From an uncultured Candidatus Rokubacteria bacterium (GTDB taxonomy: Bacteria > Methylomirabilota > Methylomirabilia > Rokubacteriales > CSP1-6): a stretch of 64,000 nt of DNA. Location of the stretch: positions 736,001-800,000 of the forward strand of contig CAVYTA010000007.1 of assembly GCA_963771355.1 (NCBI GenBank). Reading direction: 5' to 3'. Shown here piece after piece: positions 6,271 to 43,140 of this stretch. The stretch's first letter is position 1, and every line of letters begins with the position of its first letter. Under the pieces are notes generated by a model. The model did not search any database. It saw nothing but the letters and a program-made list of their open reading frames with translations, and was not told the DNA's origin. A program made the position numbers and the translations under genes.

Positions 6271-7224
6271 ATGCGTATTTGGCGGGCAAGACGGCGGTCG
6301 TCGCGGGCGTTCCTGATCGCCGGGGCCTGCTCGGCGCTCTTTCACCTGCTGCTGGTCCTTGCCGTGCTTTTCGGCGGGCTCTGGGGCACTCAGCGGGAGG
6401 TGAAGAAGGGCGAGCCGATCTTCGTCGACATGGCCCCCGACAAGCCCGAGGAAAAGGCCCCGCGGGGTAACCCGTCTCGGCCGGTCGGCCCCGAGGCCCC
6501 GCCGCCCCCCGTCCCCAAGGGGGCGCGGTTGGCGGAGGCGCCTCGTCGTGCGCCGCCGGTGCCCGCGAGGCCCGAGCCCCCGGCGCCCGTACCGGCCCCA
6601 CCCCAGCAGGTGGCCAAGGCTCCTGAGCCGCCCCCCCCAGCGCCACGAGAGCTGGAGCCCGCGCCCCCGGCCGCCCCCGCGCCGACGCAGCCCGCCGCTC
6701 CCGAGGCCCCCCGCGAGCCCGCAGAGCCCGCCCGGCCCGCGAGCCCGCCGTCGCCGCCCGCCTCGCCCGGCCCGCTCACCGCGAAGAGCAGCTCGGGCAT
6801 CGACCTGCCCGCGGCCATGCTGCGCCGGCCCGGCGGGGGCGGGGGACTGCAGGGCGGGCGCGGCGGGATCGAAGGTGAGCCCATCCCGCTCGACTCCCCC
6901 GATCCGAAGTATCAGGACTACTTCAAGATCCTGCGCGAGCGCATCCAGGCGAAGTGGACCTACCCGCGTGAGGCGGGAGATCGGGGCCTCGGCGGCTCGC
7001 TTCTCATCGAGTTCCACATCGCCAAGGACGGCCGCCTCGCCTATCTCGAGGTCCGCCGCTCGTCCGGCCTGGAGATCCTCGACGAGTACGCGGTGAACGC
7101 GATCAAGCTCGCCCAGCCCTTTCCGCCCGTCCCGGACAATCTCGCCAAGCAGGTCCTGCCCATCAACGGCAACTTCGTCTACCAGATCATCGACAACTCG
7201 CTCGTCAAGCAGTTCACCCGCTAG
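6271..7224 (+). CDS. TonB-family energy transducer
   Basis: N-terminal TM, Pro-rich linker, C-terminal YPREA..RSSG..LDEYA..AQPFPP domain. Confidence 0.85.
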   Translation: MRIWRARRRSSRAFLIAGACSALFHLLLVLAVLFGGLWGTQREVKKGEPIFVDMAPDKPEEKAPRGNPSRPVGPEAPPPPVPKGARLAEAPRRAPPVPARPEPPAPVPAPPQQVAKAPEPPPPAPRELEPAPPAAPAPTQPAAPEAPREPAEPARPASPPSPPASPGPLTAKSSSGIDLPAAMLRRPGGGGGLQGGRGGIEGEPIPLDSPDPKYQDYFKILRERIQAKWTYPREAGDRGLGGSLLIEFHIAKDGRLAYLEVRRSSGLEILDEYAVNAIKLAQPFPPVPDNLAKQVLPINGNFVYQIIDNSLVKQFTR

Positions 7225-27026: not shown

Positions 27027-27767
27027 ATGCGCATGATGGCTATCTTGCTCTCCACGCTCTTCTTGCTCGCTGTCACGCATGCCGGCCCCCCCGCCGCACA
27101 GGACCGGCATTCGGCGCAGCGCGCGCGCATGGTGGCAGAAATCGCCGCAATGGCGCGCGAGACCGGCAGCGCTACCGGACGGCCGAGTTTCAGCCAGGCG
27201 GTGATGACAGTAATGGGAAGAGTCCCGCGCCATCGGTTCGTGCCTCCGCTCCAGCAGACTTTCGCTTACGAGAACCGAGCGCTCCCCATCGCTGAAGGGC
27301 AGACGATCTCGCAACCTTTCCTTGTCGCGCTGATGACGGACCTGCTTGATCCGAAGCCAAGCGACACCGTGCTGGAAGTCGGCACCGGCTCGGGCTATCA
27401 GGCCGCGGTCCTCGCGGAACTTGTGGCGAAGGTCTACACCATCGAGATCGTCGAGCCGCTCGGCAGGCGAGCGATGCAGCTCCTCGATGAGCTCGGCTAT
27501 CGTAATGTCGAGGTGCGCATCGGCGACGGCTACAATGGCTGGCCCGAAGCGGCGCCTTTCGATTCAATCGTTGTCACAGCGGCTCCGGCGGAGATCCCGA
27601 CCCCACTGATCGACCAGCTCAAGCGCGGCGGGCGAATGGTGATCCCGGGCGGAGCCTCTGACATGCAGTATCTTCTGCTCGTGGAAAAACGGCCGGATGG
27701 CACTACCACAACGAGGCGTACGCTCCCGGTGAGGTTCGTGCCCTTCACGAGAGATCGTGCGAAATAG
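27027..27767 (+). CDS. pcm: Protein-L-isoaspartate O-methyltransferase (with N-terminal signal-like segment)
   Basis: VPRHRF, GQTISQP, LEVGTGSGYQAA, APFDSIVVTAA, VRFVP. Confidence 0.92.
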   Translation: MRMMAILLSTLFLLAVTHAGPPAAQDRHSAQRARMVAEIAAMARETGSATGRPSFSQAVMTVMGRVPRHRFVPPLQQTFAYENRALPIAEGQTISQPFLVALMTDLLDPKPSDTVLEVGTGSGYQAAVLAELVAKVYTIEIVEPLGRRAMQLLDELGYRNVEVRIGDGYNGWPEAAPFDSIVVTAAPAEIPTPLIDQLKRGGRMVIPGGASDMQYLLLVEKRPDGTTTTRRTLPVRFVPFTRDRAK

Positions 27768-28092: not shown

Positions 28093-29584
28093 CTAATTGT
28101 GGAAGGAACTGCCGAGCGGCGTCAAGCGCCATGTGAGCCAGCCGAGATGGGTGACGGGGTCCCCTGGCGGGTACGGATCGAGGGCGCGGTTGAAGTGGCC
28201 CATCAGCTCCTGTGTGTTCGGTGTGAACCACACCAGCGCCAGCAGAATCACGAGCATGGTCCCGAGGACCGCGAGGGGCTCGGGGTTCCAGCCAAGATCG
28301 ATGGCAATGGGGGCCAGGGCCGCACGCTGCGCGATATCCACATAGTAGGGCGGCGGATCGAGACCGACTCCGTTGAGGCCGCTCATCCCTCTCAGCATGC
28401 TGAGGGCCGCGGCGAAGCTCGTCGCGCGGAAGAAGACCCAGCCCACGACGACGGCGAGGAAGGTGACCAGCCAGGCCACGGCGCCCGAGGAGGGTCGAGC
28501 GCCCCAGGTCGTGGCCGAGGGCGCGCCGCAGCTCGCGCCAGCCATGGTTCACCACAGGTAGACGCCGTGCAGCGCCCCCCAGACAACGAAGGTCCAGCCG
28601 GCGCCGTGCCAGAGGCCGCCGAGCAGCATGGTGGCCATCAGGTTGACGTACCGGCGCGCCCGCCCTTGCGATTGCCGCCCAGCGGCATGTACAGATAGTC
28701 GCGCAGGAAGCGCGACAGCGTCATGTGCCAGCGGCGCCAGAACTCGATGATGTTGTGCGCCTTGTAGGGCGAGTCGAAGTTCAGCGGCAGGCGATGCCGA
28801 ACATGCGGGACGAGGCCGAGCGCCATGTCCGAGTAGCCGGAGAAATCGAAGTAGATCTGGAGCGTGTAGGCCAGCGCGCCGACCCAGGCCTACGAGCAGC
28901 ATCGGCGCGCCGCTGTGCGGCGGCCTCGAACAGCGGTCGTGCGAACGTGGCCAAGCGTGTCGGCGATCACCGCCTTCTTGAACAGGCCGAAGACGAAGAT
29001 CGTGAGGCCGGCCGCGAATTGTCCGCGTTCGAGCCGGTACGTCGCCGGGTCGCTCGAACTGCGGCATCATCTCGCGGTGATGCAGGATCGGGCCCGCGAT
29101 CAGGTGCGGGAAGAAGGTGACGAAGAGCCCGTAGTGGACGAAGCTGTACTCGCGCGCCTCGCCGCGATAGCTCGACCAGGAAGGCGATCTGCGTGAAGGT
29201 GAAGAACGAGATGCCCGAGGGGCAGGAGAGATCGACGCGGGCGCCCATTCCTTGCCCAGCAGGAGCCCCAGGTTCTCGAGCAGGAAGTTCCAGTACTTGT
29301 AGTAGCCGAGCAGGAGCAGGTTGCCGGCGATGGCGAGGATCAGCAGGAACGTCGCGGCTGTGCCCGCGCCGGGCCGGCCGCGTGCGCGATAACCGGCCGC
29401 CGTAGTTGAACAGATGGAAAGAGCAGCAGGGGCACGTAGACCGGATTCCACCAGCCGTAGAAGAAGAGCGAGGCCATCGTCAGCCAGGGGGCGGCGAGAC
29501 GAGGTGGAATCGGCCGAGCGAGAAGAAGCCGGGGAACGCGATCGGCAGGAACAGGAAGACGAACACGAACGAATTGAAGAGCAT
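28093..29584 (-). pseudogene. MBOAT O-acyltransferase (AlgI/DltB-like), multiply frameshifted
   Basis: MLFNS start, [43 protein letters not shown] spread over several frames. Confidence 0.85.
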
Positions 29585-30539: not shown

Positions 30540-30680
30540 GGCGGGCGCGGTGGTCGGTGGTGGTCGGGTGGACGGCCAGCTGGTTGCGCAAGGCGAGATC
30601 CTCGAGAGCGAGCTGGCGATGGCCGCCGCCCAAGAAGGGGAGTAGCCGAACGAGGGATTGCAGATAGTCGCGAAAGGCGT
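30540..30680 (-). pseudogene. N-terminal fragment of an IS integrase-core transposase
   Basis: GHRQLALEDLALRNQLAV motif. Confidence 0.5.
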
Positions 30681-30699
30681 CAGGATGCCGGCAGGTCTT

Positions 30700-33600
30700 G
30701 AAAGCCTTGTAGTGCTCTTTCCGCCTCATTCGTCCAGAACGGCATTTCCAGGGTTCGGTCAGCCTCGCCGCCTTGACGAGATGCTCCGGGCCTGCTCGCT
30801 TATTCTCATACGGCCGTATCCCTCGCCGATGCCGAGATGGCAGTGGGCTCCCAGGGGAGCCATCCCGAGTTCTGATGCGAGCTCCATGCCTTTGGGTAAT
30901 GTCCTTCGGCCGTCTCGGGATCCTGGCGTGCGAATGGATCTCCCCGAAAAGCCAGTGGGTCCATGCGACAGAGCCCGACTGGTTGTAATCCATGGCGGTC
31001 TGCAGTGCGAGATGAGCGACGCTGGTCGCCCGTTCGAGCTGGCCGGCGTGCAAATAAGCGTCGCTCAAGTGCACGACCCGCATGGTTTGATCGACCATTA
31101 GGTCCATGCCGCCGGCGGCGTCGACGGCCTCTTCAGGATCGCGATCGCGTCGGCTGCGCGCTTACTTAGCGTCTAGGCTCGACCGAGATAACCCGCGACT
31201 GTGACTCGCGCCATGTGAAGAACTCCCCTCTCGGACAACTGAAAGCGCGTTGCAGAGTCGAGATCGCCATGGCGAGATCGCCTTTGCGAAGATGCACGAT
31301 TCCGAGTGCCATGTAGGCATAGATCCGGCTGACGAGGTCGTCGACTCGCTTCCGCGATGCAGACCCCTTCGTTCCCACGCATAGTGGCGGGTCCGAACTC
31401 GCCAAGCTCTGCAAGTGACCACGAAAGCCATGTGCGAGCCGATACGGATGGCAAATTGGCCATTCCCAGGAAATTCGTGCGATCGGCATCGGTCGCGTCG
31501 ACGACCCAGTTCAGCAGCTCGATCGCCTGCGGTAATCGCCCCTCGCATGTCGCGCGCGGCCTGCGAACGAGTTTGCCAGTACCTCGGCCGGCGTCTCGCC
31601 AACCGGCTGCGCCGTAACCGAAGCCTGTTCGGCGGCGCCGATGGCGCGATCCTGTTGGCCGATCGACCAGAAGTAGAGGGCCTTGAATGTAAAGACGCGC
31701 GCCAGGCGAGCCTGGTCGTTCAGTGTGGTGGCGATCGCTTCCGCTTCGTGCAGCAACTCGAAACTGCGCTGAAACTCGCCAAGCGGGACAGCGAAGTCCG
31801 CAAACTGAAACGCAGATCGATCGCCTGCTGCATGACCGCGCCGCTTTGTGGCAGACGGTCGATCGCCGCCAGCGCCTCCGTAAACCTCGCGACGGCTTCG
31901 CGATGGGCGGACTTCGCCGCCGCCTTCGCGCCGGCCTGATAACAATATGAAACGGCTTTGTCCCACATCTCGCCGCGCAGGGCGTGATGCGACAGGCGTT
32001 CGATATGCTCCGAGGCGGTCCCAGTAGAGTTCTCGGTGGCCTCCAGGATTCGCGCATGCAAGGCCCGCCGGCGTTCGTGCAGCAGGCTTCCATACGCGAC
32101 CTCGTGGGTCAACGCATGCTTGAACGTGTACTCCGGCTCGGGGAAAAGCGCCGTCTGGTACAGGAACTCGGCGGATTGAAGATGAGTCAGTCCCTGCCGC
32201 AGTGCCTCGTCAGTCAGGCCGGCGATCGCGTGCAGCAGCTGAAACGGAACGCTCGTGCCAATGACCGTTGCGGCCTGAAGCAACTGCTTGTGCGCGGGCG
32301 AAAGGCGATCGATACGCGCGGCGATGACCGGCTGTACGGTCGAGGGCACCTGAATGGAGGTGAGCGGCCCGGTGAGGCGATAGGCGCCGGGCACGCCGAC
32401 GAGCGCTCCCAATTCCGCGAACGCACTGACGCTCTCTTCGAGAAGAACGGGTTACCCCCGGTCCGCTCCGCCAGCAGTTGCTTCAGCGGCTGAAGCGCCG
32501 CGTCATCTCCCAGAAGGGCATCGAGAAGGTGTCGGCGCTGTCGGGCTCGAGTGGATCGATCCGTAGCCGGGTATAGTACGGCCTGGAGTCCCAGCTCATG
32601 CATACTCGGGGCGATAGGTCACGAGCAGCAGCATGCGGGCCGGCGGGAGGTCTCGACGAAGCCCTTGAGGACCGCTTGAGTTTCGAATCGATACGTGAAG
32701 GTCCTCGAACACGACCAGTAGCGGCTGAACCTCGCTTTCCCGCAGGAGCAGCCGTTTCACGGCGTCAAGAGTTCTCTCCCGGCGTTATTGCGGGTCGAGC
32801 TTCTCCCACTCCGTATCGCTGAACGGCGTGTCAAGCAACGCAAGGAGCGCCGCGACGGAAGAATTCAGCGATTCGTCCAGGGCGAAGAGCTTGTCGTGAC
32901 CTTCTCCCGAATGGCGCGATGATCGTCGCGTTCCTGGATCTCGAAGTAGGTCTTGAGCAGGTCGATCACGGGAAGGTACGCGGTCGCTTTCCCGTAGGAA
33001 TGGATCCGCTTTCGAGATGAGCCAGGATTCGCGCGACAGGGAACGCGCAAATTCGTAAAACACGCGCGATTTTCCGACGCCGGGCTCGCCGACTAGGGCG
33101 ACGATCTGGCCATGGCCTGCCGCGGCCTGCTGCCACGCCATGCGCAGCTGGTCGAGCTCGGCATTGCGTCCCACGAATCGGGTCAGGCCCCGGCTCGCCG
33201 CAGCTTGCAGCCGCGTGCGCGCCGCCTGTGCGCCGATGAGCTCGTAGGCTTCGACGGCCTCGCTCAGGCCCTTTACGTGGATTTGCCGAGCGCTTGACCT
33301 GGACATACCCCTCGACCAGGCGCAGCGTAGAGCTGCTGATGAGAGTCGATCCCGGCATCGCCGTCTGTTCCATCCGCGCCGCGAGATGGGTGCTCTGCCC
33401 CACAACCGTATAGTCCATCCGCAGGTCGTTGCCGATCGTGCAGACCACGACTTCGCCAGAATCCAATCCCACCCTGATCTGGATCGGCACGCCGTGTGTG
33501 CGTGAATCTCTGCGCGTAGCGCTTCACCGCCTCCTGCATCCTCAGCGCGGCGTAGCACGCGCGAATGCCGTGGTCCTCGTGGGCGAGGGGAGCTCCGAAA

Positions 33601-34023
33601 AGCGCCATGATGCCGTCGCCCAACACCTGGTTGACCGTGCCCTCATAGCGATGGACGGATTCCATCATCCGCTCCAGGACAGGGTTGAGAATATTACGCG
33701 CTTCCTCCGGGTCCCGGTCGGCGATGAAGTTCCATCGACCCCTTGATATCGGCGAACAGCACGGTAATCTGCTTGCGCTCGCCCTCCAGGGCGGCTTTGG
33801 ACGTGAAAATCGTCTCGGTGAGCCGCTGCCGGGTGTAGCGTTCCGATACGGGCCGCGTGCCGGGCAATTCCTGCGTCAACGGCCCACCGCAGACGTGGCA
33901 GGTGTCGTTGGCGGCAACATTGACCGTTCTGCAGGCCGGACAGCGGATCTCGAGGCGCGTGCCACATTCCCCGCAGAGTTTTCCGCCAGGTGGGTTTTCG
34001 TGCCGACAGTGCTGCGACCGCAT
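30700..34023 (-). pseudogene. Double-zinc-ribbon + class III adenylate/guanylate cyclase + AAA ATPase + TPR protein, frameshifted
   Basis: LEGERKQITVLFADIKGS, GDGIMALFGAP, GEPGVGKSR, FKHALTHEVAY. Confidence 0.85.
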
Positions 34024-34344
34024 GCTGCTCACTCTCTGATGAACTCCGTCGTCGTCGGGCGAGTCTCCCTCGTGTGCAGCGTGGCGTTGACGGCGTCCAA
34101 CCAGCCGCGGAGCTCCTTCACCGACTTGCGGGAGGAAGGCACGTGAGTGATCAGGTCACTCTAACTCTCCCATGTGCTCAACTAGGATCGCCTGAACGAG
34201 ACGTTTGCCCCGATCGGGCAACTCCCGTCCCGAGGAGCTCCCGCCCCAAGGGCCTGCTGTATGGGACGGCAGCTAGACTACTTGCCTTGAACGAACACGT
34301 CAATCCGATTGTCATGTCAGCGGTAGGCGCGGCGGTGACCGATG

Positions 34345-35980
34345 TCAGCCCGCCGCGGTCCGGGCGAGCTCCCTTCGCAGCATCGCTCTCACCGAGTCGG
34401 ACTGCGCGCGCAGACTGCGGACCGCCCGGCGCAAGGACGGCGACGCCGCGGTGATCAACTCGCTCCAGGTGTCCTCCAGTACGGCCGAGAGCTTCTCGAG
34501 GTCCACGCGGGTGGTGCGGACGAGACAGGACATCACCTCTCCGAGGTGACCGTAGAGCATGGCGTGCGTCAAGCGCAGGCCGCCGCTCTCGTATGACGGC
34601 ATGTGCCGCCAGGTCTCCGGCGCCAGGCGTAGGTCGTGCGCCCTGGCAACGGGTCGAATCCGGGCGGGATCGAGGATCGTGGCGTCGAGGTCCCGCAGAA
34701 CGATCCGCGAGGGCATCCCGTCCCGCAGGACGATGTAGACGTTCTGGAAGATGCGGCTCGAGCGCCATGCCCCAGCGGGTATAGAAGTCGACTGGCCCGC
34801 GCATGAGAACGCGACAATAGGCGCGGAAGAACTCGCACGCGAGGCCGGGGCGGCCAAGGTCCGGCAGCCCGCGCGCCCTGCGCGGCCCGACCCACAGATT
34901 CAACGCCGGGATCACGACGTCCCCGGCGCGCTGCGGGACGGGGTGAGCGGACGATCGCCGCGCAGACCGTGTGCCCATGCGAGGCGCACCGTGGGCCATC
35001 GAGGCCACGTCGTACTGGAAATCGAGGGAGTCCTCTCCGCTGGCCGCAAGCAACAGCCGGGCAAGGGCGGACACGGTTGGCGCGTTGGGCGGTCGAAGAG
35101 GATAGAGGAGTCGGACCTCGCTGGTCAGGGTCGCGTCGATCGGAAGCTTCACGTCGAACCCCGTCGCAACGATCCGACACGTGCGCTGCGACGCCAGGGG
35201 AACGGCCTCCTCAAGCTCGCGTCGAGGAGCACGATCTCTCGCTGCCGGAGCAACTGGGTCACGATGGGTGAGAGCTCGAGCTGCCACGGATGCACCGGGA
35301 TCACGACGCTCGCGCCACGCGGCCAGGCCAGGTCGGCCCAGTTTCGGAAGCACGCGCGTTGATCATCGAAATCGATGGAGTCGAAGCGACCGTGCCGGAC
35401 CGCGATCAAAGGTATATCGATCGTCTCCCGCGACAGGTTCGAGCATCGAACTACCTGCTTGAGGGAGGGCCCGATGCGCAGCCCGGGGAACGGATGGTAG
35501 TGGTGGCCGAGGTAGACAGGCTCGATCGCCTTCGCCCCCTTGGCGAGGCGTCGACCGAGCAAGCGGTTCAGCACGAGGTTGGCGAAGCTATTGTCGAAGT
35601 TGGCGACCAGCCGATCGAAGTGTCTGGCGAGCTCTGACCTTCGCAGTGACCGACGAAGCGCGCGCAGAAACGCCCGCGGCGTGCGAATGATGCAGCGCCT
35701 CCCGCTGTGGAGAGTCCACGGTGGGCCCATTAGCTCGAGCCGCCGAAAGGGAAGTGGCCCGCTCACGGGCGCCCGGAGCATCGGCGCCCGACCGACATCG
35801 AGTGACCATCGCCCGGCGACGTCTTTCCTGAGCGTCGACGACGGGATGTAGCCTTCCCGATGGATCGATTGGAGCAGCCGGGAGACCGCGAGCAGCAAGG
35901 CGTCGTGGTGGACTTGGGCGAAGGCGGCGCGGCTGATCCGCTGGGCACGGGCCCATCGCCTGACCTCGGCGAGGGTCAAG
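34345..35980 (-). CDS. IucA/IucC-family (NIS synthetase-like) ligase, frameshifted in this assembly
   Basis: GHHYHP, VIPVHPWQ, PLASQRT, VKLP..LTSEVR, GMALEPH, QNV..VLRDLD motifs. Confidence 0.8.
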
Positions 35981-35998
35981 CCCGGAGCGGGGCGTGGC

Positions 35999-36747
35999 TT
36001 AGGTCGATTCGAAGACGTTGCGGCCAAGATCCTCGAGCGTGATCGCGTTGAAGTCGCTTAGTCGCTCCTGCATGAGCCGCGTCATCTCCGGGGCCTCGCT
36101 CGGTCCGCGCGAAATCCTCGATCAGGTTTGCCGTGTAGGCGATGTGACGAGTCTCGTCGGCTGCCAGGACATCGAGGATGCGAGTCAGCCGCTCCCGCCG
36201 CTCGGGGGCGCAGTGAGCCAGGAGCACGGGGCGCTGGAGCCGTTGGTGCATCAGTGTCCGAATCTCGGCGACGTTCATCTGAATGAGGTCGTCCACTGTG
36301 ATCGGATGGGCGAACGGCGAGTCGGGGTGAGGATCGCGCCGGCTCTGACGATTGTAACCAGGCGAAAGCGTGGTGAGCTGGGCGTGGAACTCCTCGTTGA
36401 CGGCGCCGGGAAACGCGAGGTCGAGCAGCGCAGTAGGCCCGTGAATGGCGAGACTCGTCGATCGCGTGCTGTCGGACCTGCGCCGCGACGCTCTCGTCTG
36501 GCGTCGACACTCCAAGGTCCCAGAGCTGTCCCGCGCCCTCGCCCTCTCGCTGAGCGTTCATCATAAGCGACGTGGCCATCCAGTACGGGTTGACGGCAAC
36601 GGCCCGGTAGATGTCGCTGTAGCGCCTGGTCCCGAACACGGGCGCCGACTTCCGGCATGCGGTGGTCAAAGCCTGGCGGTAATGCGGCCGAGCCTCACCG
36701 TTGAGGCGACCCAGGGCTTCCACGGTGAGCCCGGCAACGATGTTCAT
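35999..36747 (-). CDS. Ferritin-like diiron-carboxylate protein, frameshifted in this assembly
   Basis: E..DESRH and E..DETRH paired ExxH motifs. Confidence 0.75.
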
Positions 36748-36799
36748 GGGTCTGGCTCCCCCGCTGCCGGCGGCCCCGTACGCCGGGGTCGCGTCCGAT

Positions 36800-37050
36800 C
36801 TAAGGCGCGCTGACCAAAGCTTTCGTCTTGAACGGCGCGTTCAGCGAGATGAACTTGATCTCGATGTCGTCGCAGTCGGTCTTGAGCTCAAGCTTTCCGT
36901 TCTTCGCGCTACCCACGATCTTGGCTACTTGGAAGGTCTTTTGCAGCTCGGCGACGGCATTTTTGACCTTCAGTTCCGAGTCTTACCGCCCACCTTCCTC
37001 CTCCGTGTGCCGGCCTTGCGTTTCCGGGTGGCCTTCCGCGCCTTTGCCAT
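36800..37050 (-). CDS. Small (~83 aa) Lys/Arg-rich peptide, candidate precursor; one-base frameshift near 36982
   Basis: GGAG RBS; MAKARKATRKRKAGTRRRKVGGK / DSELKVKNAVAELQKTFQVAKIVGSAKNGKLELKTDCDDIEIKFISLNAPFKTKALVSAP*. Confidence 0.6.
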
Positions 37051-37179
37051 TGTCGTCTCCATGTCCCAGAAATCACTGCCCCGGTGCGACTACGGCAGCG
37101 TAAGGCACACTCAACATGCCGAAGTCAAGAAGTCAAGTGTTTGTTTGCCGACCTCGCCCCGAAGCTGCAGGACCGCGGA

Positions 37180-38275
37180 CTATGGGCGCCAGACCGATCG
37201 TTGAGCCACCGACTTTGTCCTGGATGCGCTCGCTTCCGAGTGGACCCATTCGAGCTTCGGAATCGGATCCCATCTGCTGGCGAACCCCAGCAGGTATCGT
37301 TCGCTTTTACCCTTCGCCAAGTTCAAGTCTGTAACTTGGAGCAGCGCGCCTCGTCTGGCGGACTCCTCCGCCCATGTCATATAGAACAGCCGCCGGTGCA
37401 GCGCACCTTGGGCCAGCTGCGATGCGGAAACCGCTTCCGGACCGGACTTGGCATCTGATAGGCGACCCCCGTATTAAAAACCAATGGCACCTGATTCCTT
37501 GGAACCAGGGAAAGCCCCTGCTTCAGAGTTCTACTGGCATCACCTTTGATAATCCGAATTGGCGTGCGTCGCCGGATTGACAGCGCTTCGTCAAACAAGT
37601 CTTCGGTTCGCGGGTAGTGAAATGCACGCATCCACGCCACACTGTCTTCCTCAAGCGAGACGGGGTGAAGCTCTAAACCAATTCGTTGCCCGATGACCGG
37701 CGCTGGATTTATCTGTGGGAACGCGCGTCGCGACCCCGGACGCCCTCGCGATGCAAGATCGTCCACCTCGGCAAACAGACGACATCGGGATTCGACGTCG
37801 CCCCCTTTTCCCCCAGACCGGAGTACTCGTAGCAATAGAGGTCCAGGCAGAGGTTGAGACCAAGACTCGGTCCGACTTCCACAAGAGCGATCGGTTTCGA
37901 GACGCGCTGTGCCGCAAACAGGAGTCCGGGATACAGCCCCACGCATCGACGGAAGTCATTGACCTGAGCCGGACGCTGGAGCAGCGCCGTAAGCTCATCT
38001 TCGTGTTCGAGCAGCGAACGACGCAGACTGATAAACGAGCGCCACTCCGAATCCGACGGAATCTGGAAGCGGTGCCTGCGGCTGAGGTAAGCCATAGCAG
38101 CGAAGAGAATGCGGCTTGTCTGCTCCTGAGCGATAGTGGCGGCGGAAGTGCGGGCTACGATAGGCATCAGAACGGCGTCGTCTGCGATGCGTTGCCGAAG
38201 CGTCTCCCAAGGTTCTCCCAATGGCCAAAACTTCAACAATGACTCGCGGGCCAGGCGTATTGAATTCACCTGCAC
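37180..38275 (-). CDS. DUF2332-family (SAM-dependent methyltransferase-like) protein, frameshifted
   Basis: QVNDFRRC, LVEVGPSLGLNL..D.Y.Y, RIGLELHPV, IIKGDA motifs. Confidence 0.65.
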
Positions 38276-38459
38276 GCCCGGACGAATGTTAATCCTAGCA
38301 GCACCGTTCGCTCGGAAAGGCTGTCCGTATCGCTTTCATACAGTGAGCCACCGGTAGCGGGAAGGTGAAGTCGGGCGGGCCAGCGGGGCACGGAACATGG
38401 TAGCCACTTTCGGATTCGCGTTAGCTTTCTGGCAACCCAGCCTTGCGTGCTCCCTCGAC

Positions 38460-40575
38460 GAGGATAGGCAACATCAACGCCCTCCGGCGGCGGGCGCCCC
38501 GCGCGTGGCCCCCGTCACCGTGACATAACCGCCCAGACTCGGACGCCGGCCGCCCCAGGAGCCGATGGCACAGCGCACATTAGCGGCCTCCTCGCCGATC
38601 GGCGAGCCGACCCGGGTGAGCGGCATGCTAGGCCAGACACACCGCCGCCGTCAATCGGCCGGGACCGGCCGGATCAGCACGGATGTCACCTCGCGGCGCC
38701 GGCACGCGGCGTCCGCCGCGCCCCCGAGCCGATCCGATCAGGACGCGGCGGCGCCGGACTCGGGTGGGGCGGGGCCGGGACTCTGCCCTGAGGGGCCGAT
38801 CCCCAGGTGCGCGAGGATCTTCCGGATGACGGCGGGATCGTGCAGCGTGGCGATCAGGCGCAGCCGGCCCCCACAATGGGGACACGCCAGAACATCAATG
38901 GCGAACGCCCGGTGCATCAGCGCCGCCCAGCTCCAGGCGCGCGGACTGCGGTCTTCACCCCCGTGTCCTCCGGACCTGCGGCCCGCGGCGCCGTCAAGGC
39001 CGTGGGCTCGGGCACCACGCGTCCGTACGCGACCACGCGCGCGCGCCAGCGGGCACGCGCGGCCAACAGGCCATGGCAGATCAGCAGGTTCGTTTCCGGC
39101 CGCGGCGTCATCGCCGCCAGACCGCTCCAGCAACTCCAGCGGCTCGAACACCAGCTCGCGCGTGCCGTCGTGCCACGCCGTCTTCAGCTCCAGCGCGATG
39201 CGGCCGTCGCTCCGCAGCCGCAGGCGCTCCTGCGCGAAGGGCGGACGCAAGATATATCTGCACAGCCGCTCCAGCCCCGCCCGATCGTTCGCCGACACCC
39301 ACACGTTGGCGTGCAGATCGAAGCCCTCCAGGTGCGCCTGCCGCGGCCCGCGCGACGTCACGGTCGCCGTGTCGCGCGCGTCGCCGAGCCGCCGCACCCG
39401 CGCCCCCGCGCGGGGGCCCAGCGCCACCCGCCCCTGCACCGAGGCGCCCGACGATCCCCGCCAGCACGGGGGACTCGTCCGCGAGCCGATCCGCCGGCCC
39501 CGTCGCGTCGTCGGCCGGGCTCCAGGCCGCGGCGCACCAGCAGCCGTTGCACCCGGTGGCGGATCGTCGCCAGCGCCGCCGCGACCTCGGCGTCGCTCGG
39601 CCCCGGCGCCGGATGAAACACCAGCGCGCCCCCGGGCGCTTCGGTGAACACCCCGTCCAGCACGAGGGTGTGAAAATGCACGTTCGCGTTCAACGCCGCC
39701 GCCCGCGCGCTGCATCGCCGTGACCATGCCGGTCTGCCCACCGGCGATGCCGCGCGCGCGCGCGCCGCGCCGGTACACGTCGAGCAGCACGCGCGTGTAC
39801 ACCCGCAGCACCGCGCGGCTCAGCCCGTGATTCCACGCCATCTGGTAGCGCAGCCGATACGGCACCGTCAGCACCCACTGCCGCACCGGCACCCACGGCA
39901 GCACCGCGTCCACCAGATGCGCCGCGCGCTCCGTCATCCGCCGGCCCCCGCAGCTCGGACACCACCCCCGCCCTTTGCACGAAAACGGCACCAGGTGCTC
40001 GCGCGCGCAGCCCTCGCACCGAAACCGCGCCACGCCGGCCTCGAACACGCCGCACGGCAGGAACTCCCGGAACTCGCGCTCGACGAACTGCGGCAGGCCC
40101 GCGCCGTCGCCGGCCTCCGCCACCGCGCCCAGGAAGGCCTCCAGATGCTCGGCGATGACCTGATGGAGCACGGTGTGCTCGGCGTCTCGCGGGGCCGGTA
40201 GACCGCTCGCGGGAAGGCCATGGCCCCCAGGTGCGGTCAGGGCGCCGACCGGGACAATGCTGAGAGATTGATACACCGAATAGGGGGGGGATGGCGGCGG
40301 CCGAACCGCTGCCGGCGGTGCGTTTACGGTCCGGAACGGTGGGGAGGGCAACCTCGCGCGCGGCGACACGTGGTGTGACCCGGGGAGGGCGGTGGTCTGG
40401 GTGTCCATGGTCTGGCTGGAGCTGGATGGTCCTCCTCGCCTCCAGAGCACATCGAGACTTCTGGGGGAGCCGAGGGAGTGCGCAGGGAACGTCACGGACG
40501 GATTTAGATCGGGATCTCGAGAGCAGAAGCTCAGCGACCTGTTCGCCGGCAAGTGGTTGCGGGCCCCCGCAACCA
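38460..40575 (-). mobile_element. ISCR/IS91-family rolling-circle element, copy 1
   Basis: oriIS-like end ...GCGTTGATGTTGCCTATCCTC downstream of the transposase; upstream end runs into the att-like palindrome. Confidence 0.85.
38738..40221 (-). pseudogene. ISCR/IS91 HUH transposase, frameshifted
   Basis: Zn domain [36 protein letters not shown]. Confidence 0.88.
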
Positions 40576-40652
40576 ACAAACACAAGGGGTTCGGCGCTCT
40601 CGCCGAGCCCCTTTCGTGTCTCAGTTAGCCGACTTGTCCCGAAACTTGTCCC
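40554..40652 (+). repeat. att-like junction: TGGTTGCGGGCCCCCGCAACCA palindrome + tRNA terminator + ACTTGTCCC x2
   Basis: Right part near-identical to 25899-25986. Confidence 0.85.
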
Positions 40653-41158: not shown

Positions 41159-42145
41159 GTGATGGATCGCCGCGCGTTCCTGGCTGGTGCTGCCGCGCTG
41201 CTTGTTGCGCCGCTCGTCGGCGAGGCGCAGCAGGCGGGGAAGATGTGGCGGATCGGCTATCTAGACCAGGGATCGGCGGCCGGTGGCAGCCTTTATGTGG
41301 ACGGACTCAGGCAAGGCTTGCGAGAGCTCGGTTGGGTTGAGGGCCAGAACATCGCCGTTGAAGTTCGGTTCGCCGAGGGGAGAACCGACCAGCTCCCCGC
41401 GCTCGCGGCCGAGCTCGTCCGCCTCAAGGTGGACCTCATCGTCACCTCGACCACGCCAGCGGCCCTAGCTGCCAAGCAAGCCACTACGACGATACCCATC
41501 GTCATTGGGTTTGCTGCCGATCCGGTTGGGAGTGGAATCGTCGCCAGCCTTGCGCGCCCCGGAGGAAACATCACTGGGTGGACGCACTCGGGTCTTGAGT
41601 TGAGGGCCAAATATTTGGAGTTGCTCAAGGAAGCCGTTCCCGAGGCCACTCGCTTCGGTGTCCTTTGGAACCCTGCTAACCAGGTACATCAACCGTCGTT
41701 GAAGGTCATCGAAGACGCCGCTCAGCGACTCAAGGTGGAGTTGCACCTAGCTGGCGTACAAGAACCCAAAGAGATCGAGCGCGCCGTCTCGGCGCTGGTG
41801 AAGAGGGGCGTACAGGCCCTCGTAGTGTTCCCAGATGGGATGTTTCAAGCTCAGACACCGCTCATCATCGCCGTTGCCGCCCGGAACCGGCTCCCTACGA
41901 TGTACGGCCTCAGGGAGTATGCGGAGGTCGGAGGTCTGATGGTCTACGGGGCCAATGTGGCCGAGATGCACCGGCAGCTCGGCGCGTCCTTAGTGGACAA
42001 GATTCTTCGCGGTGCCAAGCCCGCAAACCTTCCCGTCGCGCAACCGATGAAGTTTGACCTGGTGATCAACCTCAAGACCGCGAAGGCCCTCGGCCTCAAG
42101 ATCCCTCAGTCGCTCTTACTGCGGGCAGATCAGGTGATCGAGTGA
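41159..42145 (+). CDS. ABC transporter substrate-binding protein (ABC_sub_bind type), orphan
   Basis: Tat-like MDRRAFL, SLARPGGNITG, INLKTAKALGL..RADQVIE. Confidence 0.9.
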   Translation: MMDRRAFLAGAAALLVAPLVGEAQQAGKMWRIGYLDQGSAAGGSLYVDGLRQGLRELGWVEGQNIAVEVRFAEGRTDQLPALAAELVRLKVDLIVTSTTPAALAAKQATTTIPIVIGFAADPVGSGIVASLARPGGNITGWTHSGLELRAKYLELLKEAVPEATRFGVLWNPANQVHQPSLKVIEDAAQRLKVELHLAGVQEPKEIERAVSALVKRGVQALVVFPDGMFQAQTPLIIAVAARNRLPTMYGLREYAEVGGLMVYGANVAEMHRQLGASLVDKILRGAKPANLPVAQPMKFDLVINLKTAKALGLKIPQSLLLRADQVIE

Positions 42146-43140
42146 TGATGGAGCGGCGGGCGTTCGTTGCTGGTGCAGTCGCCCTCCTCGCCGCGCCGCT
42201 CGCCGCCGAGGCCCAGTCGGCGGAGAAGGTGTACCGGATCGGCTATCTCTCCATCGGCTCGGGCACGGGCGCCGTCTACACTCGTCCCCTGGAGGGGTTC
42301 CGGCAACGGCTGCGTGAGCTCGGGTGGGTCGAGGGCCGGAACATCGCCATCGAATTTCGCTATGCCGAGGGCCGTGCCGACCGGCTGCCGGGCCTCGCCG
42401 ACGAGCTGGTCCGCCTCAAGGTCGACATCATCACGGCCGTGCCGACGCCCGCTGCCTTGGCCGCCAGGAATGCCACGAACACGATCCCCATCGTCGGAAT
42501 GAGTCTTACCGAACCGGTCGCGGTCGGGCTCGTGGCGAGCCTCGCGCGCCCAGGCGGCAACGTCACGGGGGTCTCCTACACCTTCGGCACGGAGCTTTTC
42601 GGCAAGCAGCTCGAGCTGCTCCGGGACGTCGCTCCCAAGGTGCGCCGTGTGGCCGTCCTCGCGAGCCCGACCGGGATCCCCGCCTATCCGCAAATGTTGG
42701 ACGCCTCCAGGGCCGCGGCCAGGTCGCTAGGACTGGAGCTTCAGCTCCTCGAGGTCCGCGAGCCCTCCGACTTCGACAGCGCCTTCGCGGCGATGGCCAA
42801 GGAGCGCGTGGGATCACTCCTCGTCATGGGGCACCCGCTGTTTTTCATCCACCGGACGCGGCTCGCCGATCTCGCGGCAAGGAACCGGCTCCCGTCGATG
42901 TCCACGCAGGAGCAATGGGTGGAGGCGGGGGGCCTCATGTCGTACGGGCCGAACTTCGTCGATCTGTACCGGCGCGGCGCGACCTACGTGGACCGGATTC
43001 TCAAGGGCGCCAAGCCCGGCGACCTGCCCATCGAGCAGCCAACCAATTTGTCGCTGGTGCTCAACCTCAAGACCGCCAAGGCGCTCGGCCTGACGATTCC
43101 GCCGTCGCTCCTAGCCCGGGCGGATCAGGTGATCGAGTAG
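42142..43140 (+). CDS. ABC transporter substrate-binding protein (ABC_sub_bind type), tandem paralog
   Basis: Same motifs; overlaps the upstream stop codon. Confidence 0.9.
   Translation: MMMERRAFVAGAVALLAAPLAAEAQSAEKVYRIGYLSIGSGTGAVYTRPLEGFRQRLRELGWVEGRNIAIEFRYAEGRADRLPGLADELVRLKVDIITAVPTPAALAARNATNTIPIVGMSLTEPVAVGLVASLARPGGNVTGVSYTFGTELFGKQLELLRDVAPKVRRVAVLASPTGIPAYPQMLDASRAAARSLGLELQLLEVREPSDFDSAFAAMAKERVGSLLVMGHPLFFIHRTRLADLAARNRLPSMSTQEQWVEAGGLMSYGPNFVDLYRRGATYVDRILKGAKPGDLPIEQPTNLSLVLNLKTAKALGLTIPPSLLARADQVIE

Follow-up and report, generated by a model that had tools for sequence, protein, structure and literature searches.

A small open reading frame, a helical diiron protein and an IucA/IucC-type ligase in a Rokubacteria genome: a conserved cassette that probably modifies a ribosomal peptide

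Introduction

Does a small open reading frame (ORF) that directly precedes the genes of a diiron protein and an IucA/IucC-type ligase encode the substrate of these two enzymes? The question is raised by a locus in a 64,000-nucleotide (nt) stretch of DNA of an uncultured Candidatus Rokubacteria bacterium (GenBank assembly GCA_963771355.1, contig CAVYTA010000007.1, positions 736,001 to 800,000; G000:C7:736001-800000 in our own numbering), which is referred to below as the window and which comes from a genome of 5.5 Mb in 8 contigs with about 70% GC. An earlier note on this DNA had proposed here a pathway resembling those of RiPPs (peptides that are ribosomally synthesized and then modified post-translationally), composed of a small peptide, a ferritin-like diiron enzyme, an IucA/IucC ligase, and a DUF2332 protein as a candidate methyltransferase. 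A RiPP class takes its definition from the enzyme that forms it, and, to our knowledge, the established RiPP enzymes include neither a helical diiron oxidase of the family described here nor a ligase of the IucA/IucC type.

Results of our analysis suggest, with a probability that we put at about 0.7, that the locus is one copy of a conserved, horizontally mobile cassette whose peptide would be the substrate of the diiron enzyme and then of the ATP-dependent ligase, and which would represent a RiPP-like system of an undescribed class.

Results

Linkage of the peptide, diiron, and ligase genes

The cassette proper is a tight unit, in which the peptide gene is separated by a 52-nt gap from the diiron gene, and the latter overlaps the ligase gene:

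36800..37062, minus strand: precursor-like small ORF; its translations give a basic N-terminus, a leader-like middle, the core F-I-S-L-N-A-P-F, then K-T-K and a 7-residue tail
35999..36747, minus strand: helical diiron protein of the type with 249 amino acids (aa), without a Pfam or NCBIfam family; tblastn with the homologues P0003 and P0002
34345..36027, minus strand: ligase with IucA/IucC and FhuF domains, a distant relative of the synthetases of siderophores made independently of nonribosomal peptide synthetases (NIS synthetases); Pfam PF04183 and PF06276, tblastn

A scan of a genome collection with the diiron alignment revealed 40 loci in at least seven named phyla (Methylomirabilota/Rokuibacteriota, Pseudomonadota, Actinomycetota, Acidobacteriota, Cyanobacteriota, Myxococcota, and Vulcanimicrobiota), the carriers including Bradyrhizobium sp. 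TZ2, Pseudomonas sp. NFXW11, Moorena bouillonii, Calothrix sp. NIES-2100, Sorangium cellulosum So ce26 (two copies), and Paraliomyxa miuraensis. Of the 38 loci whose upstream DNA is available (L030 and L046 have none and are outside this count), 36 have an open frame of 25 aa or more with the motif N-[AS]-[APS]-[FY], at most 600 nt upstream of the diiron gene and on the same strand. The same motif ORF was found in none of 38 opposite strands, in none of 32 and again none of 32 control regions at 2.5-3.2 kb upstream, and in none of 28 downstream regions, so that the arrangement of the small ORF and the diiron gene is far beyond chance. The two misses are L026 and L044, the latter having a core of a different repeat.

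A search that started from the ligase yielded 79 metagenome loci. A diiron match lies directly in front of the ligase in all 59 that have at least 760 nt of upstream DNA (in one of them, L104, it is an 81-nt remnant only), and the motif ORF, without Cys, is present in 54 of the 55 with enough further upstream DNA, the miss being L104. Whether the search starts from the diiron gene or from the ligase gene, these two and the peptide gene are locked together, and the small ORF, whose absence from homologous loci the earlier note had named as a refutation of its proposal, accompanies the diiron gene in the genome and metagenome sets alike.

Two clades and their partner enzymes

In the genome set, the ligase gene is directly behind the diiron gene in 18 of the 40 loci (tblastn with the window fragments). 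In the other clade, its position is taken by a class-I S-adenosylmethionine (SAM) methyltransferase in 17 loci, and a GNAT protein is present in 10. The maximum-likelihood tree of 37 diiron proteins, from which L023 (split by a stop), L046 (partial), and L047 (fragmented) were left out, places all ligase-linked rows in one clade with 100/100 support; it is at odds with taxonomy, which fits horizontal transfer. In a DNA search of close relatives, the ligase and diiron DNA was common to only 2 of 40 relatives, at 71-72% identity. In Sorangium cellulosum So ce26, the cassette of the methyltransferase type is present twice (L032 and L048, about 13.4 kb apart), with identical diiron proteins and with precursors that differ by one residue.

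The precursor-like peptide

The small ORF of the window appears in two frames. The first one begins with ATG at 37062 or 37050 (the latter is preceded by GGAG at a distance of 6 nt), encodes a very basic N-terminus, and ends with a stop at 36972-36970, and the second one, offset by one base, runs from 36982 to 36803 and encodes the C-terminal K-F-I-S-L-N-A-P-F-K-T-K followed by seven residues; the frame break is near 36977/36978. The description of this gene in the earlier note, as an ORF of about 83 aa with a basic N-terminus that is split by one missing base, agrees with these two pieces. The peptide can be aligned with 28 homologous small ORFs, in which the Asn and the final Phe are invariant, and a profile search finds the window ORF as the sole copy in its genome (E 1.3e-12).

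Alignments of 29 and then of 84 peptides show a common leader pattern and, in the core, an Asn and, three positions on, an aromatic residue, both of which are invariant. About half of the loci have a core in the form of a tandem heptad of 2 to 9 copies, and overall 1 to 9 core copies follow the conserved leader. The heptad reads F-x-A-C-N-A-P, or Y-x-x-C-N-A-A in Myxococcota. Peptides of the ligase-linked loci have a single core without Cys, usually followed by Lys. Cys precedes the Asn in 16 of 16 methyltransferase-linked precursors, and the Cys-Asn pair is found in 0 of 16 ligase-linked precursors from genomes and 0 of 54 from metagenomes. The core chemistry tracks the partner enzyme: Cys-Asn goes with the methyltransferase, and a core without Cys goes with the ligase. 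As read from the alignments, the predicted peptides have the leader and core architecture typical of RiPP precursors, namely, a conserved leader, conserved core residues, and multiplied cores.

Profile searches found 315 precursor peptides (clusters). Among the 120 precursors listed, the source names are 'hypothetical' or 'uncharacterised', except for two JGI labels 'nickel-dependent lactate racemase', and neither Pfam nor NCBIfam has a model for the peptide. One of the precursor-like peptides of the methyltransferase type (P0244, 'Uncharacterised protein') has Burkholderia pseudomallei as the source name. In locus L044 of Calothrix sp. NIES-2100 (positions 6500-7000), the small ORF keeps a leader-like start and its core is another repeat, of the I-R-I-[HYF]-P type; the diiron protein of this locus is on a very long branch and the methyltransferase gene is on the opposite strand. 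In the AlphaFold2 (AF2) model of one full-length homologue of the peptide, the 22 C-terminal residues are predicted to be coil, with a low confidence (pLDDT 64.5).

The diiron protein

The diiron gene of the window extends from 36747 to 35999 in three collinear pieces, 93-100% identical to P0003 and P0002 (tblastn), with breaks near 36429-36431 and near 36098 and with a confirmed stop codon. A word-indexed search with the N-terminal part gave 51 proteins, nearly all of 249 aa, 'hypothetical', and without Pfam domains. A search of 1.84 billion proteins, represented at 50% identity clustering, extended the family to 351 representatives at E <= 1e-3, of which 158 are at E <= 1e-30; the clusters of the protein atlas for this family carry the names 'hypothetical' and 'ferritin-like' only and give no functional lead. 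Two of the distant homologues (P0180 and P0182, E about 1e-33) have an N-terminal domain of about 240 aa without a Pfam match.

The residues E68, H94, D97, E98, H101, E162, E199, and H202 are invariant in 40 diiron sequences. The set includes three His (H94, H101, and H202) and four Glu (E68, E98, E162, and E199), which are putative metal ligands. The AF2 model of P0002 is all-helical (pLDDT 93.9). No Pfam family matches the protein at threshold, the best being AurF with 16.4 bits against a cut-off of 29.6 (E 0.005-0.07), NCBIfam gives no match, and the best E value in a profile search of the PDB sequences is 0.019, to R2-like ligand-binding oxidase. The top Foldseek matches of the model are a TenA homologue, AetD, and UndA, with a TM score of about 0.5. 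Exhaustive structure alignment (VIA) ranks an ADO-like protein (Z 13.7), UndA (12.8), HrmI (12.7), CADD (12.3), and SznF (12.1) above ferritins, Dps, and PaaA (Z about 10-11.8), with the reservation that helical bundles often reach Z values of 12-14, which show the superfamily only. The predicted structure thus likely belongs to the helical diiron superfamily, within which a heme-oxygenase-like diiron oxidase (HDO) and a ferritin-like protein both fit. The earlier note had spoken of a ferritin-like protein with two ExxH motifs; a predicted helical protein of the diiron type is encoded at the locus, but its model resembles HDOs at least as well as ferritin bundles.

The ligase

The ligase gene of the window, from 36027 to 34345, is in three pieces with at least two breaks (tblastn with intact homologues of 546 and 551 aa). 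Its fragments match PF04183 with 35.1 bits and PF06276 with 30.1 bits (gathering cut-offs of 25 and 25.2), and 10 intact homologues score 39.9-67.4 bits with these models. The ligase profile matches AsbB (2e-10), AcsD, IucA, IucC, NcdF, DesD, and AlcC at E values from 2e-10 to 6e-4. It is aligned to AsbB through GH-Y-P, HPWQ, S-RT-R, and E-H-QN, the residues of which are invariant in 9 homologues and which we take to be the nucleotide-binding and catalytic motifs of NIS synthetases. With both domains above the cut-off and the motifs kept, the assignment of an ATP-dependent ligase resembling NIS synthetases in the earlier note holds, and the protein is probably a distant but active adenylating enzyme of the NIS type.

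The stop codon of the diiron gene and the start codon of the ligase gene abut or overlap in the related loci. In two cases, L009 (6935-9424, 829 aa) and P0058 (455 aa, apparently truncated), the two proteins appear in one open frame, which is either a natural fusion or an artefact of a single indel. In the complete genome of Bradyrhizobium sp. TZ2 (L016:7750-9412), the ligase and the upstream cyclase-AAA-TPR gene each appear as two frames.

Neighbouring genes

The three cassette genes are flanked on both sides by genes of the same strand:

30650..34032 (low end approximate), minus strand: protein of about 1100 aa with a double zinc ribbon, a class III nucleotide cyclase domain, AAA_16, and TPR; Pfam, tblastn
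37377..38275, minus strand: DUF2332 gene, a neighbour without conservation in the cassette; PF10094, two frames

The cyclase gene begins about 310 nt downstream of the ligase gene. The Pfam models DZR and AAA_16 match its frames 34032 to 33694 and 33558 to 32785, respectively, and the cyclase homologues of L020 and L010 cover 34023 to 30810 in several frames, with several breaks (tblastn). A gene of this kind adjoins the cassette in 12 of the 18 ligase-type loci from genomes and, among the metagenome loci, in 51 of 79, a set with many short loci; its place is in front of the peptide gene or, as in the window, after the ligase gene. Regulators of the Crp type or a cyclase are also near three further loci (L027, L037, and L044).

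The DUF2332 gene has two PF10094 matches in overlapping frames, 38275 to 37709 (81 bits) and 37946 to 37377 (48 bits), with a break near 37809. The earlier note had counted four co-oriented, closely spaced genes, with DUF2332 as a possible methyltransferase of the pathway. All four genes are where that note had placed them, on the minus strand, but the DUF2332 gene is about 326 nt upstream of the small ORF, and the tight unit comprises three genes. Neither of its window fragments has a homologue within +/-7 kb in any of the 40 related loci (tblastn), and DUF2332 is a bystander rather than a part of the system. An anti-phage defence system found little support: among the PADLOC models, matches were confined to those of the PycC type, which recognise the cyclase domain in general, and to one methyltransferase model, and none matches the peptide, the diiron protein, the ligase, or DUF2332.

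Further features of the region are as follows:

38738-40585, minus strand: IS91/ISCR-type transposase, 615 aa, with Zn_Tnp_IS91 and Y2_Tnp, directly beyond the DUF2332 gene
41159-43140, plus strand: two tandem ABC_sub_bind genes (PF04392) beyond the transposase gene
28549-29451, minus strand: fragment of the MBOAT family (Pfam)
27027-27767, plus strand: protein-L-isoaspartate O-methyltransferase (PCMT, 198 bits)

The transposase scores 222 bits with the model of ISCR clade Ia, far below the cut-off of that model. Neither DUF2332 nor the IS91-type element is more than a neighbour of the cassette. The PCMT gene and the MBOAT fragment are 5-7 kb from the cassette and show no link to it. PF04392 genes, together with a DDE transposase gene, stand behind the cassette in locus L009 too, which may be a coincidence with the PF04392 genes of the window. 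The window region 25500-48000 has a GC content of 58-67%, as opposed to about 70% in the flanks, and nearly no long open frames except that of the transposase; several of its genes are split by frame breaks, as judged by homology, and hence the ORF-based reading of this stretch is unreliable. A consensus scan for known RNA and promoter signals gave 1 promoter-like and 3 terminator-like sites, and shuffled sequences give as many.

Discussion

The small ORF behaves as a precursor that is locked to the diiron gene and, in the clade of the window, to the ligase gene. In this respect, the RiPP-like reading of the earlier note stands, and it is amended by the removal of DUF2332 from the system. The methyltransferase sister clade with its tandem-repeat cores, the recurrent cyclase-AAA-TPR neighbour, and the probable origin of the frame breaks in assembly errors were absent from that note.

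In the proposed mechanism, the diiron enzyme, activating O2, would oxidise the core at or near the Asn/aromatic pair, by N-oxygenation, C-hydroxylation, or formation of a cross-link. The ligase would then adenylate a carboxylate and couple it either to the oxidised peptide or to the Lys found in most cases after the core, so that an amide or an ester would be added or closed. In the sister clade, the methyltransferase, with or without the GNAT protein, would act in the ligase's role, and the cyclase-AAA-TPR protein may regulate the cassette or sense its product. A more specific version, which we consider unlikely in its entirety, would have the diiron enzyme N-oxygenate or otherwise oxidise the Asn/aromatic pair and the NIS-type ligase acylate the product (the methyltransferase or GNAT protein modifying it in the sister clade), to give a hydroxamate-like metallophore or a peptide signal that would be sensed by the TPR-bearing cyclase-AAA protein and converted to a cyclic-nucleotide output.

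Several points weigh against the view that the peptide is a modified precursor. A leader with the very basic N-terminus of the ligase-type peptides would be unusual, and this N-terminus could mean a small nucleic-acid-binding protein. No RiPP recognition element (RRE), leader protease, or dedicated exporter is conserved in the neighbourhood (Pfam, 70 and 52 ORFs of 14 and 12 loci). The related loci share ancestry, and the linkage counts overstate their independence. The chemistry is proposed entirely from sequence. The fold assignment of the diiron protein is not decisive, as Foldseek gave nothing at E <= 0.001 (best E 0.043) and the Z values reach to the superfamily. As for novelty, no description of the peptide family or of the enzyme pairing was found in the open-access full text of PMC and bioRxiv, subscription journals being outside that scope.

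The first of these points bear on the strongest alternative, namely, that the product of the small ORF is a functional small protein (a basic binder of nucleic acid or ribosomes, a regulator, or a chaperone), and that the enzymes build a small molecule from free metabolites. Besides the Lys/Arg-rich N-terminus and the lack of a conserved protease, exporter, or recognition domain, it can draw on the strands and helices predicted, at low confidence, in the leader part of the AF2 model, and on the small-molecule substrates of known NIS synthetases and HDOs, as indicated by the names of the matches. A tandem heptad of variable copy number behind a conserved leader, however, ill fits a folded partner, the composition of the core co-varies with the tailoring enzyme, and genes for the supply of small molecules are not conserved nearby. 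We regard this alternative as rather improbable.

The second alternative concerns the copy in the window. All genes in the region of about 30.6-38.3 kb are frame-broken in this assembly, the locus is lower in GC than its flanks (59-67% vs. about 70%), the IS91/ISCR-type transposase gene adjoins it, and the diiron gene is present in 0 of 7 other genomes of the same genus. The cassette of this genome may therefore be a decayed, non-functional remnant in an island of lower GC rich in insertion sequences, whatever its role elsewhere. The comparison with contigs from four studies (four public runs of soil or rhizosphere), which cover 33900-38400 mostly at 95-99% identity or better, argues for a different origin of the breaks. 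Runs X4 and X14 have two extra letters at 36431/36432, in the first diiron break; runs X1, X3, and X4 have two letters fewer at 37809, in the DUF2332 break; independent contigs carry single-letter indels in the ligase gene at 34963, 34970, and 35088; and X4 has at 36978, in the peptide break, a loose end with one letter more than the window, which is weak because it comprises 12 letters only. The near-identical 247-aa protein P0003 is intact across both diiron breaks (tblastn). Among 251 genomes of the phylum, 7 have the diiron gene, and the match is fragmented only in the genome of the window (8 contigs) and in one other (G038, 30 contigs) and intact in the five remaining carriers, a pattern of consensus errors. 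Contigs of an RNA library lie on parts of the region, which is weak evidence against decay, as DNA carry-over is possible. Given the indels that the contigs of the four studies show at several of these sites, the breaks are most likely consensus errors of the assembly, and the organism itself probably has an intact cassette. Decay of the copy in this strain, to which the breaks near 35200, 34749, and 36098 without a listed indel in the compared contigs still lend some weight, is improbable in our view.

The third alternative, an ordinary NRPS-independent siderophore locus with an incidental small ORF, is very unlikely despite the IucA_IucC and FhuF architecture of the ligase, the MFS transporter and TonB-dependent receptor genes 0.8-2.5 kb downstream in L022, and the metal-transport genes near L017, given that 12 annotated ligase-type loci have no siderophore-type hydroxylase, decarboxylase, or acyltransferase gene and a receptor gene in 1 of 12, that the ligase is far from known NIS synthetases (best E 2e-10), that the small ORF accompanies it in 54 of 55 loci and the diiron gene in 59 of 59, and that the sister clade has no ligase at all. 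In the window itself, Pfam found no amine hydroxylase, decarboxylase, or TonB receptor in 28 ORFs of the 22-51 kb region (many ORFs there are frame-broken and without a match), and the MBOAT fragment about 5 kb from the cassette is the only match of the acyltransferase type, in accordance with the earlier note, which had reported the lack of such genes and had named a place in canonical siderophore clusters as one finding that would refute its proposal. On the gene context of the window and of the 12 loci, such a cluster was rejected. Locus L022 (5032-14115), which also has a radical SAM/SPASM gene upstream, is the sole annotated locus with uptake or export genes.

The reading of the peptide as a precursor relates the cassette to several known systems. 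In cyanobactins, three-residue cyclophane peptides, and fungal dikaritins, RiPP precursors carry tandem cores behind one leader, and these classes rely on proteases and macrocyclases, radical SAM enzymes, or DUF3328 oxidases. The cassette peptides share with them the conserved leader and the tandem short cores in a copy number that varies by taxon, but the conserved enzymes of the cassette are a diiron protein and either a methyltransferase or an NIS-like ligase. The ligase has the order of the IucA_IucC and FhuF domains, the size of about 546 aa, and the GH-Y-P, HPWQ, and E-H-QN motifs in common with AsbB, AcsD, IucA, IucC, DesD, and AlcC; it differs in being only distantly related to these NIS synthetases and in its position behind peptide and diiron genes, without genes for siderophore building blocks.

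The structural neighbours of the diiron protein include the HDOs UndA, HrmI, SznF, CADD, and AetD and the ferritin-like AurF and CmlI. According to a 2026 review (PMC13108848), SznF, AurF, and CmlI are 3H/4C N-oxygenases, a count matched by the three His and four Glu of the diiron protein. The known enzymes of these groups use free amino or fatty acids, whereas the diiron protein is encoded beside a peptide gene, and it reaches the cut-off of no curated sequence family (AurF, Rubrerythrin, FA_desaturase_2, TENA/PqqC, and similar). The pointer that the review gives to HDOs in the modification of ribosomal peptides is a genome-mining citation.

A further RiPP parallel is that of the MNIO/DUF692 oxidases, such as the methanobactin system MbnA-MbnBC. 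Like the cassette described here, these systems, described in part in PMC9060507, are minimal and have the gene of a non-heme, O2-dependent iron enzyme (multi-iron in MNIO) behind that of a small precursor, with short cores that sometimes contain Cys and are sometimes repeated, and their products are metal binders or other modified peptides. The diiron protein of the cassette, however, has no DUF692 or any other threshold Pfam match and an all-helical model, the cassette has no partner of the MbnC/DUF2063 type, and the core of the ligase clade has no Cys. The RiPP logic of the cassette is known and its enzyme set is new. Pfam (2025), NCBIfam (June 2026), PADLOC, and the protein atlas hold no description of a peptide-diiron-ligase system. 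The earlier note had likewise named no characterised pathway of this layout.

The family is sizeable, with 351 diiron representatives and 315 precursor clusters in at least seven phyla, soil bacteria among them, and its cassettes of two to four genes are present in cultured, non-pathogenic carriers, such as Pseudomonas sp. NFXW11, Sorangium cellulosum So ce26, Paraliomyxa miuraensis, Moorena bouillonii, and Bradyrhizobium sp. TZ2. The recurrent cyclase-AAA-TPR genes and the Crp-type regulators hint at a link of cyclic-nucleotide signalling to the modification of peptides. Confirmation of the RiPP-like reading would bring a new peptide chemistry and a new handle for genome mining; if the more specific version given above is true, no NIS-type ligase before that of the cassette, and few helical diiron oxidases before its diiron enzyme, would have been shown to act on a gene-encoded peptide.

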